Of a stretch of 64,000 nucleotides of DNA, positions 22,124 through 26,876 are shown piece after piece. The stretch is from Candidatus Latescibacterota bacterium (GTDB lineage: Bacteria > Latescibacterota > UBA2968), in assembly GCA_038279365.1 (NCBI GenBank), contig JAYODI010000006.1, forward strand, positions 22,268 to 86,267, in the 5' to 3' direction. The number at the start of each line of letters is the position of its first letter. Positions within the stretch are counted from its first letter, which is position 1. A program made the translations under genes and the position numbers. The notes beneath the pieces are model-generated. The model ran no database searches and had not been told where the DNA came from. It was given only the letters and a program-made list of their open reading frames with translations.

Positions 22124-22166
22124 AAAAGCCCTTCAGAAATCTGATAAATTTCTGAAGGGCTTTTTT
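22124..22166. terminator. Bidirectional terminator
   Basis: AAAAGCCCTTCAGAAAT-N7-ATTTCTGAAGGGCTTTTTT. Confidence 0.9.
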
Positions 22167-22185: not shown

Positions 22186-22761
22186 TTATTTTTTCTTTTT
22201 TAATTCTGCAATCTTAGCCACAAAATCATCAAAATCGTAGCGGTCGCCATTGTTTTTTCCCACATACCGAAACACTTCTTTACCCTTTGGGTCAAGAATC
22301 ACCAGTGCAGGGTAGTGCACCACTTGACCGTGAAATTTATATCCAAACGGAATATCAAAAGCTTTGGCAAGTCCTGCTTCTGTGTCGCGATAAATAACAG
22401 GCAAATCATCTGCAACATTTTCACCAGATTGGTTTTTCTGATCTAACTTAACGCTCCATTCTTTTATCTCTTCGTCTGTATCAGGTTTTAAAAAAACGTG
22501 TACGGCTTCTGGCACTTCATTGGCACGCCACGCATAATCAATCGTATGGCGAATACAATAAGGACAAGCCGTCTTTAATAAAAAATGTAATGCAACATAC
22601 TTCCCCTTGGCATCCGACAATTTAAAAACGCCATCACCATCGGCCTCGTGTACCACAAAATTTGTTTTATCCACACCTTCCATCTTTTTGGCATCTTCTG
22701 CCCACACCGTTGTGACACCCCATACCAAAAGCAGCAAACAACCTACCCATATATTTTTCAT
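22186..22761 (-). CDS. Exported thioredoxin-fold redoxin (AhpC/TSA-like)
   Basis: Signal peptide, LSDAKGKYVAL, CPYC, PALVILDPKGK. Confidence 0.8.
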   Translation of the reverse strand: MKNIWVGCLLLLVWGVTTVWAEDAKKMEGVDKTNFVVHEADGDGVFKLSDAKGKYVALHFLLKTACPYCIRHTIDYAWRANEVPEAVHVFLKPDTDEEIKEWSVKLDQKNQSGENVADDLPVIYRDTEAGLAKAFDIPFGYKFHGQVVHYPALVILDPKGKEVFRYVGKNNGDRYDFDDFVAKIAELKKKK

Positions 22762-22879: not shown

Positions 22880-24043
22880 TCACTCAATACGCTCTGCGCC
22901 ATTGACCGCCGAGCAAACATAAATCTCAGGCGTGAGTTTTGTCGCCTGAGGGTACTTTTCATTGATTGTAGCCATAAAGCCATCAACAGCATCATCTTCC
23001 ACCAGATTAACCGTGCAACCACCAAATCCAGCCCCCGTCATCCGTGCCCCCAAAACCCCAGGCACCCCATTGGCAATATCCACCAACAGATCCAACTCCA
23101 TACCGCTCACTTCATAATCATCGCGCAAGCTCACATGAGATGCATGCATCAATTGTCCAAAGCCAGCCACATCACCTACCTGTAACAATGCCACAGCCTT
23201 TTTTGTGCGGTCATTTTCCGTAATGACGTGACGACATCGTTTAAATATCTCTTCCGACAATGCACCTTTATAGGTCTCCAACTGGTCCATAGATACATCG
23301 CGCAGTGCTTTAAAATCTTTTCCTGATGCCAATCCCAAATGCCGCACCCCATTCTCACATGCTGACCGACGTTCGTTATAAGCCGAAGTGGTTAACCCCC
23401 GTGTCACACCAGAATTACAAATCACAATACGCACACCCTCTTTCGCCAATGGCACCAAATCATAAGACAAGTCACGGCAATCCAAAAACAACGCGTGGCC
23501 AGCTTTGCCGTTGGCCGAAATAAACTGATCCATAATGCCACAATTAACACCCACAAATTGATTTTCGGCACGTTGCCCCAACAGCGCCAAATCGGGGCCA
23601 GAAAGATCGATATCATTTAACGCCAAAAGCATTTTCCCTACGGCCATCTCTACAGCCGCAGAACTGCTTAACCCTGCTCCCATAGGCACATTGCCCACCA
23701 CCGCAGCATCAAAACCTTTAAGAGAATGACCCAATTTTTGAAATTCTCTAATCACACCTTTTCCATAATCTGCCCAATGTTTTTTAGCCACCAATTCTTT
23801 GTCCAAGGCATATTCTACCAATTCCTTATGCATGCCCGAAAACACACGCACCAACTGATCATTTCGGGCACGCACAGCAATCACCACCCAGCGATCAATC
23901 GCAACTGGAAACACAAAACCATCATTATAGTCCGTATGTTCACCAATTAAATTCACGCGACCTGGTGCTTGTACCAAAAACTCAGGTGAACAATCAAAAG
24001 CCGATTCAAATGCACTTTGCGCCTGCACAACAATGGGATGCAC
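22880..24043 (-). CDS. galK: Galactokinase
   Basis: APGRVNLIGEHTDYNDG, GAGLSSSAA, CGIMDQ, GARMTGAGFGGC. Confidence 0.98.
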   Translation of the reverse strand: MHPIVVQAQSAFESAFDCSPEFLVQAPGRVNLIGEHTDYNDGFVFPVAIDRWVVIAVRARNDQLVRVFSGMHKELVEYALDKELVAKKHWADYGKGVIREFQKLGHSLKGFDAAVVGNVPMGAGLSSSAAVEMAVGKMLLALNDIDLSGPDLALLGQRAENQFVGVNCGIMDQFISANGKAGHALFLDCRDLSYDLVPLAKEGVRIVICNSGVTRGLTTSAYNERRSACENGVRHLGLASGKDFKALRDVSMDQLETYKGALSEEIFKRCRHVITENDRTKKAVALLQVGDVAGFGQLMHASHVSLRDDYEVSGMELDLLVDIANGVPGVLGARMTGAGFGGCTVNLVEDDAVDGFMATINEKYPQATKLTPEIYVCSAVNGAERIE

Positions 24044-24100: not shown

Positions 24101-26248
24101 TTATCCACACATGGCATGACGCAACTCTTCGGCGGTGATATCTGGGTCCGATGGATTAATCAAATTTCCAAAAATATCGGCACCAACCACGTGCTTTCGC
24201 AAACCTGGCCCACGCAAAAGAGAGGTGATATGAATTTGCATGTGGTATCCATAATCAACCCCATTGGTTGGCGTTTGCAACAATGCCAATGTATAATGAT
24301 AAGGCGAATCAAATAAACCATCCAACCCCACCAATACACGTTTCAAAACACTGGCCAATCCCCACCGTTCACGGCCATCCAATTCAACCAAACTGGCCAC
24401 ATGGCGCTTGGGTACAATCATTACATCATAAGGAAATTGTGCCGCGTAAGGCACATAAGCCACCACATCTTCCTGATCAGCGAGAATACGCCGTCCATCA
24501 TCTCTTTCAACCTGATTGGCATCACATACAAAACATCGGCCGTGATCTTTTTGATATTGTGAAAACATGGCCAATTGGGGTTTGATAATCAGATCCGGAA
24601 TTTCGCCATAGGCATACACTTGTCCATGTGGGTGAGGTTGTGAATTGCCCATCACCGTGCCTCTGTTTTCAAAAATCAACGGATACACAATCTCTATCTG
24701 TTTACCCAACCGATCATAAATATCTGCCCAAGCATCCACCACTTTCACAATGGCATCTACCGACAGCGTAGACAACCTTTGTGAATGATTGGGGCCATAA
24801 ACCACCACCTCACACACACCGCGCGATGTTCGTGAGGCATACGGGCCATTTTGTGAAGAAGCTTCATATGCATCCAAAACCAATGATGAAAAATCATTGG
24901 CAAATGTCCAAACCCCTTCATACTTTGGGTTCACATCTCCCGTAACACGCGTATTGGTGGGGCACAAATAACACTCAGGTTCATAAGTTACATCCCCCCC
25001 AGTCTCCATCGCTTGGGTTTCCCCACGCCATGGTCTATTACCCCGATGGGCCGCAATATTCACCCATCGATTCCAAAATGGGTTAAACCGCTCTTCTTGA
25101 ACAACACGATATCCTTGCGGATGTAAACGATGCCAATGCCATGCCGATTCCAATGTCTCTAATAGCGTTTCTTTCGTTTTCCATCCCAACTCTTGTGCAA
25201 TTTTATCGGCATTGGCAATCAGTGTCGCAGGATCCCCACTTCTGCGCTGTCCAGAAATTTCAGGAATGGCATGCCCCGTCACCTCTCTGGCCGCTTCAAT
25301 AATTTCTCTGACCCCAAACCCTTTGCTCGACCCCAAATTATAGGTCATGGAAGGTGCACCGGATATTAATTTATCCAAACACAAAACATGGGCATCGGCC
25401 AATTCGGGCACAGAAATATAATCTCTAACCGCCGTGCCATCAGGCGTGTCATAATCGTTTCCAAAAACTGTAATGTGGGGCCTTTGCCCCAATGCCACTT
25501 GTAAAACAATCGGAATCAAATGTGTTTCAGGATCGTGATCTTCACCAATCAACCGAGAACGATCTGCACCTGCTGCATTAAAATAACGCAAAGCAGCAAA
25601 CCGACGCCCCGAACGGATCAACAAACGTTCATCCATCACCTTGGTGATACCATATACATTGGTCGGAATTTTTAAATGCGCAACATCATCACCACCCAAT
25701 GCAAGCAAATCATTTTGTTCGGCAACCTCTTTTGTATACCAATTTAACAGTGTTTCAAAATCCACCGAAGCGGGCATCAACTGACTCTGATCAAACCCAC
25801 CAGAAGACAAAAGCATATCCTGATAATTTTCTTTGAGAGGAATATGCTTTGAGGCAGGTTCACCATAGGTCGCAGCCGTTGAAGATTTAACAATTGGCAC
25901 ATCACCCGATACAGCAACAAGATTTCGAAAAGCAATCACATTGTTGTCAAAATAAAATCTCGGTTTCTGTTGAGATTCACCCACCAAGCTTTTGGCTGCA
26001 AAATCAATAATTCCCACAAAGGAATGACGGTTAAAAACCTCAGATAATGCAGGCAAATCCAACAAACTCACTTTTTCAAAACAAAATTGTCCTGGGCCAT
26101 AAACCCGTTCAAACAATGTCAATACCTCTTTGTGCCCTGTAGACAAGTCGTCTAAAACCACAACGCGTCGATTGTCTTCTAACAGTCGGCGTGCCGTATG
26201 GCTACCAATATATCCTGCCCCACCCGTAATCAAAATCGCATCCGTCAT
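24101..26248 (-). CDS. galE-galT: Bifunctional UDP-glucose 4-epimerase / galactose-1-phosphate uridylyltransferase (GalE-GalT fusion)
   Basis: aa 1-380: TGGAGYIGSH, YGITK, RYFNAAG, GNDYDTPDGT. aa ~385-715: HRGNRPW, CYLCP, FENRG..MGNSQPHPHGQ. One uninterrupted frame. Confidence 0.93.
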   Translation of the reverse strand: MTDAILITGGAGYIGSHTARRLLEDNRRVVVLDDLSTGHKEVLTLFERVYGPGQFCFEKVSLLDLPALSEVFNRHSFVGIIDFAAKSLVGESQQKPRFYFDNNVIAFRNLVAVSGDVPIVKSSTAATYGEPASKHIPLKENYQDMLLSSGGFDQSQLMPASVDFETLLNWYTKEVAEQNDLLALGGDDVAHLKIPTNVYGITKVMDERLLIRSGRRFAALRYFNAAGADRSRLIGEDHDPETHLIPIVLQVALGQRPHITVFGNDYDTPDGTAVRDYISVPELADAHVLCLDKLISGAPSMTYNLGSSKGFGVREIIEAAREVTGHAIPEISGQRRSGDPATLIANADKIAQELGWKTKETLLETLESAWHWHRLHPQGYRVVQEERFNPFWNRWVNIAAHRGNRPWRGETQAMETGGDVTYEPECYLCPTNTRVTGDVNPKYEGVWTFANDFSSLVLDAYEASSQNGPYASRTSRGVCEVVVYGPNHSQRLSTLSVDAIVKVVDAWADIYDRLGKQIEIVYPLIFENRGTVMGNSQPHPHGQVYAYGEIPDLIIKPQLAMFSQYQKDHGRCFVCDANQVERDDGRRILADQEDVVAYVPYAAQFPYDVMIVPKRHVASLVELDGRERWGLASVLKRVLVGLDGLFDSPYHYTLALLQTPTNGVDYGYHMQIHITSLLRGPGLRKHVVGADIFGNLINPSDPDITAEELRHAMCG

Positions 26249-26336: not shown

Positions 26337-26876
26337 CTATTCATCCATTTTCATTTGAATAGGAAGCAATACCGTAAATGTTGTGCCTTCTCCCAGTTTG
26401 CTAAAAACGCGAATTTCTCCATGATGATCTTCTATAATTTGATAGCAAATTGACAACCCCAGCCCAGTTCCCACGCCGACCCCTTTGGTCGTAAAACCAG
26501 GGTCAAAAATGCGAGAAATATTTTCTTTTGATATGCCTCGCCCATTATCAACAATATCTATTTCAACCATTTCCCCAACCTTGCGTGTGCGAATCGTGAT
26601 CTGCCCTTTACCCTCTATGGCCTGAGCCGCATTGACCAATAAGTTGAGAAATACTTGATTCACACGTGAAAAATAAACATCCGTGCTGTCAACCTCAGAC
26701 ATTATGGTCAAATCATACGGATCATGTTTATATGTGCTGTCCATATAAACGGGTTTTATCTCTTGGGCATTAACCGTTCCCCAAATGCACCACATAAGAA
26801 TCATCCACCCGCCCAAACGCAGAAGACACCCTATTGTTCTTTCCAAAACACACCTCACACAAGCCAGGTAAAACAC
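26337..26876 (-). pseudogene. Internally deleted sensor kinase: signal-peptide-like stub joined to HATPase_c only
   Basis: NQVFLNLLVNA, DNGRG, DPGFTTK, GTGLGL are present; there is no H-box/HisKA; the N-terminus looks like an export signal. Confidence 0.6.

Follow-up and report, generated by a model that had tools for sequence, protein, structure and literature searches.

Does one gene of an uncultured bacterium encode two complete Leloir enzymes, and what could the joining of the two offer to the cell? This question is raised by an open reading frame (ORF) in a 64,000-nucleotide stretch of contig JAYODI010000006.1 from a Candidatus Latescibacterota bacterium, the whole of which we call the window. 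In this ORF an epimerase, GalE, continues directly into a uridylyltransferase, GalT. The source genome is a metagenome-assembled genome (MAG) of a sediment bacterium, comprising 199 contigs with 98.5% completeness and 7.4% contamination. Coordinates given here are window positions, and the residues of the fused protein are numbered 1-715. A preliminary description of the window had interpreted the ORF as two Leloir enzymes in one essentially linker-less polypeptide, and this interpretation is supported by the domain matches and by catalytic residue sets that are invariant in 25 homologues. Based on these observations, we suggest that the ORF probably encodes a genuine bifunctional Leloir enzyme, which would provide 1:1 co-expression and local recycling of uridine diphosphate (UDP)-hexose. 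The main parts of the ORF are as follows.

24101-26248, minus strand: galE::galT fused ORF, 715 residues, from the ORF list; stop codon at 24101-24103
25106-26248, minus strand: GalE half, residues 1-381, from the TIGR01179 match, the alignment with Escherichia coli K-12 GalE and the fold match
24104-25105, minus strand: class I GalT half, residues 382-715, from the TIGR00209 match, the 1HXQ alignment and the fold match
25073-25123, minus strand: join, residues 376-392, in which HPQGY and about four residues (RVVQ) lead into RFNPFW of GalT, from codon reading and alignment

When the 715-residue ORF was scanned against Pfam, Epimerase/GDP_Man_Dehyd matched the N-terminal part from residue 5, GalP_UDP_transf matched residues 383-551 and GalP_UDP_tr_C matched residues 560-710, while the Aldose_epim domain (PF01263) was not found. 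Both halves exceeded the cut-offs of the curated NCBIfam models: galE (TIGR01179, extended short-chain dehydrogenase/reductase (SDR)) scored 321 bits against 262.3, in a match split into two stretches, and galT_1 (TIGR00209, HIT superfamily) scored 250.5 bits against 102.1. For the GalT half, the stricter PRK11720 model stayed below its cut-off (294.6 against 448). The epimerase had been described beforehand as intact, with GxxGxxG and YxxxK motifs, and we found them as the nicotinamide adenine dinucleotide (NAD)-binding motif GGAGYIG and as YGITK (Y199 and K203). The catalytic Ser assumed in that description is in fact Thr; in the alignment with E. coli K-12 GalE, T124 (in KSSTAAT), Y199 and K203 correspond to S124, Y149 and K153. 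In addition, Leu343 is located at the position of E. coli GalE Y299. The class I GalT had likewise been called intact, which agrees with its motifs RFNPFW...HRGNRPW, CYLC and HPHGQ as well as with the TIGR00209 score. This half aligns with residues 12-331 of E. coli 1HXQ, and nothing in it corresponds to the first ~10 residues of the E. coli-type GalT. Its recognised sites are listed below.

24962-24973, minus strand: CYLC (C426 and C429), aligned to C52 and C55 of E. coli GalT, invariant in 25 rows
24626-24634, minus strand: HPH (H539 and H541) followed by Q543, aligned to E. coli H164, H166 and Q168, invariant in 25 rows
24524-24535, minus strand: second CxxC (C572-F-V-C575), in the C-terminal half of GalT, alignment columns 620-630

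In E. coli GalT, we take C52, C55, H115 and H164 to be the zinc ligands and H166 to be the nucleophile that accepts the uridylyl group. H488 of the fused protein aligns to H115 and is also invariant, as is the GGAGYIG motif of the GalE half. Thus the complete set of catalytic and zinc residues (T124, Y199, K203, C426, C429, H488, H539, H541 and Q543) is unchanged in the 25 fused homologues of our alignment, which share 50-85% identity and were chosen to span the identity range of 66 full-length clusters.

The join itself is the most constant part of the protein. HPQGY ends at residue 380 (nt 25107-25109), as the preliminary description had stated, and the join shows neither a gap nor an insertion in any of the 25 homologues, so that its length is constant down to 50% identity. 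Among the five segments that we compared over the 25 rows, it has the highest conservation (0.79, versus 0.69-0.73 for the catalytic parts) and is the only gap-free one. Codon reading revealed no stop and no in-frame ATG, GTG or TTG in the join, in line with the earlier reading of this region, and an internal start giving a separate GalT was rejected because no such codon is available there.

In structure prediction, each half takes the fold of its own family. The AlphaFold2 (AF2) model of the 715 residues, calculated on the 25-row alignment, is a compact monomer with a mean predicted local distance difference test (pLDDT) value of 86.2 and a predicted template modelling (pTM) score of 0.86, and this pTM over the whole chain favours a defined arrangement of the two halves relative to each other. 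When the model was compared with known folds using Foldseek, the GalE half matched 8wxk, 2c20 and 1udc at a target-normalised template modelling (TM) score of 0.91, and the GalT half matched 6gqd and 1gup at 0.86-0.89. No chain found by Foldseek covers both halves (best query-normalised TM 0.44), and no entry in the PDB sequence search spans both. We also folded the halves as two separate chains. The score was 0.51 (runs 0.65, 0.47 and 0.51) versus 0.00 for the best of three controls, with at least 88% of contacts agreeing between runs and partner pLDDT values of at least 87. For reference, 116 of 157 solved complexes and 2 of 215 mismatches reach the mark of this test, and the passes scoring 0.60 or less comprise 18 of the 157 solved complexes and both passing mismatches.

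The fusion is not limited to the genome analysed here. We surveyed 168 Latescibacterota species genomes at E ≤ 1e-30 and obtained matches in 100 of them. In the family of the source organism, all 30 other genomes match, and in 26 of these the match extends from residues 1-5 to residues 712-715 in one stop-free frame; of the remaining four, three run into contig ends and one carries a frameshift. A second family contains the fusion, again in an uninterrupted frame, in 2 of 22 genomes, which brings the other species genomes of the phylum with this uninterrupted frame to 28. Other families of the phylum have separate canonical galE and galT genes, often adjacent and with galE first. In three species (G121, G115 and G113; loci L048, L049 and L050 on G121:C23, G115:C49 and G113:C20), canonical galE and galT lie in one frame with exactly one stop codon between them, so that a fusion is one point mutation away. 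A scan with one genome per species gave 36 related loci, of which 34 include the join, every one of them with an in-frame fusion; the other two are L041, a GalT alone, and L043, which starts at a contig edge. Most of the loci carry Latescibacterota record titles, and outside the phylum the fusion was found in three MAGs labelled Poribacteria; of 121 sampled genomes of their phylum, 3 have it. Two loci (L032 and L040) are titled Gemmatimonadetes bacterium; their contig coordinates are those of G043 and G066, two Latescibacterota genomes according to the genome collection, and the title disagrees with this placement. In one 8.4-Mb single-contig genome of the same family (L045, G070:C1:1937148-1939278), the fused gene is disrupted from about residue 456 onwards and galK is spread over three frames, which could be gene decay or long-read indel errors.

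At the level of protein clusters (90% identity), this fusion type comprises 66 clusters with at least 98% query coverage and 49-100% identity, which merge into a single cluster when the clustering is done at 50% identity, and two further types of GalE-GalT fusion were observed.

The type described here, ~715 residues: insert-bearing GalE and class I GalT with a ~4-residue join, in Latescibacterota and Poribacteria-labelled MAGs
Type B, 678-692 residues: canonical GalE and class I GalT with ~40 residues between the matched parts, in a Dermatophilaceae MAG; the Joint Genome Institute (JGI) record names both functions
Type C, ~850 residues: canonical GalE and class II GalT (galT_2), in a cluster shared with a Vallitaleaceae isolate

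In the GalE tree, types B and C have GalE halves that group with the canonical GalEs and not with the insert clade described below, and natural GalE-GalT fusions therefore have at least three independent origins. GalE-GalK (P0173, 700 residues) and GalT-GalK (P0214, 752 residues) fusions also exist, with both halves matching curated models.

The preliminary description had named an already widespread and characterised architecture as a result that would speak against its reading. The architecture is indeed widespread, as seen from the 66 clusters, the 28 genomes and the two further types, but none of the papers that we could find characterises it. Our literature search, which did not extend to subscription journals and supplements, gave no paper that describes or characterises a natural GalE-GalT fusion protein. 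PMC5720513 was considered as a precedent and rejected, because the fused enzyme in the accessible part of that paper is AdhE and its galT and galE are separate. The fused proteins themselves are already in public databases, and neighbouring genes of a pathway are known to fuse.

Each half of the protein also shows features that distinguish it from the E. coli enzymes. In the GalE half, the following insert interrupts the domain, which is the reason why the GalE profile match is split in two.

25670-25813, minus strand: 48-residue GalE insert, about residues 146-193, between the strand carrying the Thr and the YxxxK helix, from the split GalE match and the E. coli GalE alignment

In the alignment, neither E. 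coli GalE nor the type C fusion has the insert, and the stand-alone GalE P0082 does. AF2 models it as three short helices (residues 142-148, 164-176 and 186-191), with mean pLDDT values of 85-97 for 10-residue blocks, and it is the least conserved of the five compared segments (0.55). We then calculated a quick GalE tree (45 rows, LG+G4) with Shimodaira-Hasegawa-like approximate likelihood ratio test (SH-aLRT) values as its only support, in which nine hand-picked stand-alone canonical GalEs, P0089 among them, were included. All insert-bearing GalEs, 25 fused and 7 stand-alone (P0080, P0082, P0083, P0121, P0125, P0128 and P0142), fall on one side of a branch with a support of 96, and three of the stand-alone members are basal in the insert clade. 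Since stand-alone GalEs carry the insert, some of them basal, the insert appears to mark a GalE subclade and not the fusion, and on the tree it is older than the fusion or at least independent of it. When the metagenomes were scanned with P0082, 80 loci were obtained, but these were canonical GalEs matching at 38-44% identity through a generic motif, and the scan was uninformative on an adjoining matching GalT.

In the GalT half, a metal site differs from that of the E. coli enzyme. The second, iron site of E. coli GalT is formed by E182, H281, H296 and H298; it is structural and dispensable for catalysis, and we therefore do not count it among the defining features of class I GalT. In the 1HXQ alignment only one of these four positions is kept (H296 as H673), E182 being replaced by Pro and H281 by Leu, with H298 deleted. 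The second CxxC, which is missing from E. coli GalT, is found in 17 of the 25 fused homologues, and the other 8 have a Cys-free segment that is shorter by 7 residues. Together with the depleted iron site, this motif could be a substitute structural metal site. In the GalT tree (40 rows; L054 and L055 were left out as no ORF with the motif was found there), the fused GalT halves fall into one clade (support 99) with the stand-alone GalT P0122 and that of the KSB1 locus L041, and the E. coli-like GalTs of Latescibacterota with split genes form a separate clade. The GalT half thus belongs to a separate GalT subfamily with a depleted iron site. The KSB1 single-cell genome (G170, 2.9 Mb) gave only the stand-alone GalT at E ≤ 1e-30; its completeness is not stated, and this result does not show that a long GalE is absent. 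Three fusion-bearing genomes (G063:C657, G068:C211 and G043:C48) have an extra stand-alone E. coli-like GalT that is 36-39% identical to the fused GalT half.

GalT and GalE draw on a common, catalytic UDP-hexose pool. We propose that the galK product makes galactose-1-phosphate (Gal-1-P), which the GalT half would convert with UDP-glucose into glucose-1-phosphate (Glc-1-P) and UDP-galactose via a uridylyl-His541 intermediate, and that the NAD-dependent GalE half would return UDP-galactose to UDP-glucose using T124, Y199 and K203. With GalT and GalE on one chain, one polypeptide would therefore turn Gal-1-P into Glc-1-P, with UDP-hexose as a catalytic carrier. The halves would be rigidly joined, as the C-terminus of GalE runs directly into the first conserved GalT motif. 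Such a fusion would fix 1:1 synthesis of the two enzymes, would remove the intercistronic re-initiation step at which E. coli partly loses galT expression, and would hold both UDP-hexose sites in one particle. As to the re-initiation step, the part of PMC9239205 available to us reports that, if galT fails to initiate in E. coli, 10.7% of transcription stops at the galE/galT junction, and that translation continuing across this junction, as obtained by replacing the galE stop codon (stop to Lys), lowers Rho-dependent termination there. Both enzyme activities and the advantage of the fusion are deduced here from sequence and its conservation. Kinetic channelling between the two sites, which the preliminary description had put forward together with higher-order assembly, is a more doubtful proposal, which we consider rather unlikely to apply.

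Among the known systems, the E. coli pair (galETKM; 1XEL/1UDC and 1HXP/1HXQ) performs the same two reactions with the same gene order E-T-K, and its catalytic Tyr and Lys, zinc ligands, HPH nucleophile and Gln all align with those of the fused ORF, with fold matches at TM 0.86-0.91. However, E. coli uses two proteins where one chain with a 48-residue GalE insert is found here; its GalE has Ser124 and Tyr299 where the fused GalE half has Thr and Leu; and, compared with its GalT, the fused GalT half lacks the first ~10 residues, keeps one of four iron ligands and has an extra CxxC. Gal10p of Saccharomyces cerevisiae (1Z45) is likewise a natural bifunctional Leloir protein with GalE at the N-terminus, and 1z45 matches the GalE half; its partner domain is an aldose 1-epimerase and the two reactions are not consecutive, whereas the partner in the fused ORF is GalT, which shares the UDP-hexose pool. 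An engineered case is the E. coli 'galE stop0' mutant (PMC9239205), in which loss of the galE stop places GalE and GalT on one chain. Here canonical genes are joined through a short read-through linker, and no enzymology is given in the part of the paper that we could consult. In contrast, the Latescibacterota fusion appears ancient and family-wide, with an invariant join length and divergent GalE and GalT subfamilies. Types B and C resemble it in having GalE and then GalT in one ORF, but type B differs in its canonical insert-free GalE and ~40 residues between the matched parts, and type C in its class II (galT_2) transferase. Finally, Gne of Campylobacter jejuni, a group 2 UDP-glucose/N-acetylglucosamine (GlcNAc) 4-epimerase, carries, in the portion of its description that we could consult, the same two residues, Thr in the place of the catalytic Ser/Thr and Leu at the specificity position; it is, however, a stand-alone enzyme of glycan synthesis without the insert.

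Here, we need to consider whether the observations could be explained otherwise. An assembly or sequencing artefact, or a pseudogene read through a stop or frameshift that the true genome has at the join, might be suspected from the 199 contigs and the contamination of the source MAG, and from the relative L045, which is frameshifted in its GalT part and in galK. A stop or frameshift near nt 25100 had also been named beforehand as the result that would speak against a fusion. However, contigs of three independent studies (X5, 24101-25155; X6, 24968-25206; X7, 24981-25205) cross nt 25109 with few substitutions and no indels, the same frame recurs in dozens of independent assemblies including single-contig chromosomes, and the catalytic residues are conserved. 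Based on the contig bridging and the intact frame in 28 other species genomes, we reject this explanation as far as public data allow, and its chance of being correct is negligible. It is more plausible, though still unlikely, that the halves are tethered but independent enzymes, in which a stop loss became fixed and brought at most equimolar co-expression, with no defined interface, channelling or special assembly. Three species of the same phylum have galE and galT in one frame with a single stop between, and the at least three GalE-GalT fusion types together with GalE-GalK and GalT-GalK suggest that joins of this kind are readily tolerated. Stand-alone versions of both halves are found within the same clades, and the interface score (0.51) is weak. 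On the contrary, a passive tether would not be expected to be of constant length and the best conserved segment in 25 homologues; the ~10 N-terminal residues of the E. coli-type GalT have no counterpart, the whole two-domain chain has a pTM of 0.86, and the fusion is kept across the whole family in 30 of 30 genomes.

Another explanation, to which we give very little credence, is that the substrate range has shifted, the GalE half being a group-2-like epimerase that also uses UDP-GlcNAc and UDP-N-acetylgalactosamine (GalNAc) and also serves amino-sugar or glycan-precursor metabolism. Leu343 at the E. coli Y299 position and Thr124 at the catalytic Ser position would fit with this, as the accessible part of bioRxiv 10.1101/2020.09.22.308395 gives T122 and L294 at these positions in the group 2 epimerase CjGne and states that Y299C lets E. 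coli GalE accept acetylated substrates; moreover, with no other GalE over the cut-off in the genome, the fused one may also supply biosynthesis. Against this, galK is the fixed neighbour, present at 30 of the 34 fused loci, the score of the GalT half is that of an equivalog-level galT_1, and no sign of a GalNAc-1-phosphate pathway was present in the data examined. In addition, Leu at the Y299 position widens specificity and does not replace it. The Thr124/Leu343 pair resembles that of group 2 epimerases such as CjGne, which makes a wider epimerase substrate range possible. Several observations also weigh against the bifunctional enzyme that we favour. Stand-alone relatives of both halves mean that neither half needs the other covalently, and, as fusions arise easily from genes one stop apart, a weak or purely expression-level benefit would suffice. 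The two-chain test gives weak support for a defined GalE-GalT interface. The sole evidence of transcription is one 368-nt contig of an RNA library over 24101-24418, which may be DNA carry-over, and four other RNA runs contained 0.05-0.11 of the sampled words. Even so, we regard a bifunctional Leloir enzyme with 1:1 co-expression and local UDP-hexose recycling as the probable explanation. A bolder proposal, improbable when taken as a whole, is that the join and the insert would oppose the two UDP-hexose sites, so that the nucleotide sugar is passed or retained and the protein acts in effect as a Gal-1-P 4-epimerase whose bound cofactor is UDP-hexose. Class I GalT is typically a homodimer in which the subunit interface forms the active sites. 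As the dimerisation surfaces of GalE and GalT differ and the geometry would be fixed, this proposal would predict a closed higher-order assembly (for example a ring or a D2 tetramer) unlike those of the single enzymes, and a stand-alone long GalE with a matching GalT would form an equal complex non-covalently.

The surroundings of the fused ORF are those of a galactose operon. The neighbouring features are listed below.

22880-24043, minus strand: galK, galactokinase of 387 residues, TIGR00131 at 392 bits against 226.65, 57 nt downstream of the fusion
22186-22761, minus strand: AhpC/TSA-like thiol peroxidase with a hydrophobic N-terminus, after galK
22124-22164, minus strand: terminator-like hairpin with a 19-bp stem and a T run, after the AhpC/TSA-like gene, from a consensus scan only
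26337-26876, minus strand: ORF of 179 residues directly upstream of the fusion, with HATPase_c only (residues 71-174) and no recognisable dimerisation or His domain

That galK follows had already been noted in the preliminary description, and at 30 of the 34 fused loci the gene is found downstream in the same orientation, with two of the four misses being contig ends. With galK, galT and galE clustered on one strand, the locus has the make-up of a Leloir gal operon. The fusion is the sole GalE match over the cut-off and the sole GalT match in the source genome, and none of the next-best SDR epimerases of this genome exceeds a curated cut-off. Two galM-like genes are located elsewhere in the genome, on other contigs. 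A homologue of the AhpC/TSA-like gene also lies downstream of galK in L030, and this gene may be co-transcribed with the gal genes. The hairpin behind it is the strongest terminator-like hairpin of the region and possibly marks the end of the transcription unit. Upstream of the fusion, the HATPase_c ORF may be an orphan or truncated sensor kinase, and L011 and L023 have a similar piece upstream of their fused gene. When promoters were searched for, 9 promoter-like sites were found versus 11.8 expected from shuffles, and no promoter could be named. The GC skew is negative in 32 of 32 bins of 2 kb (cumulative -5.06), the plus strand being G-poor, and the window therefore lies wholly on one replichore.

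With a natural rigid GalE-GalT chain, one could readily test if closeness by itself makes a cofactor-recycling pair faster. Such a chain would also offer a compact one-protein catalyst for converting Gal-1-P into Glc-1-P or for regenerating UDP-galactose in glycan synthesis. Public records name this fusion and the two other types mostly for one of their two functions; NCBI names for the present type are GalT only or GalE only, and once 'GDP-mannose 4,6-dehydratase, partial'. With such single-function names, pathway reconstructions of Latescibacterota and of Poribacteria-labelled MAGs can list galE or galT as absent by mistake. Study at the bench is merited by the linker-less, invariant join, by the GalE clade that carries the insert, by the iron-depleted GalT subfamily and by the presence of all fusion stages in one phylum. 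Latescibacterota shows the series together, from separate adjacent genes, through genes one in-frame stop apart, to the fixed fusion, and the gene sequences indicate that the fusion design is conserved across a whole bacterial family.

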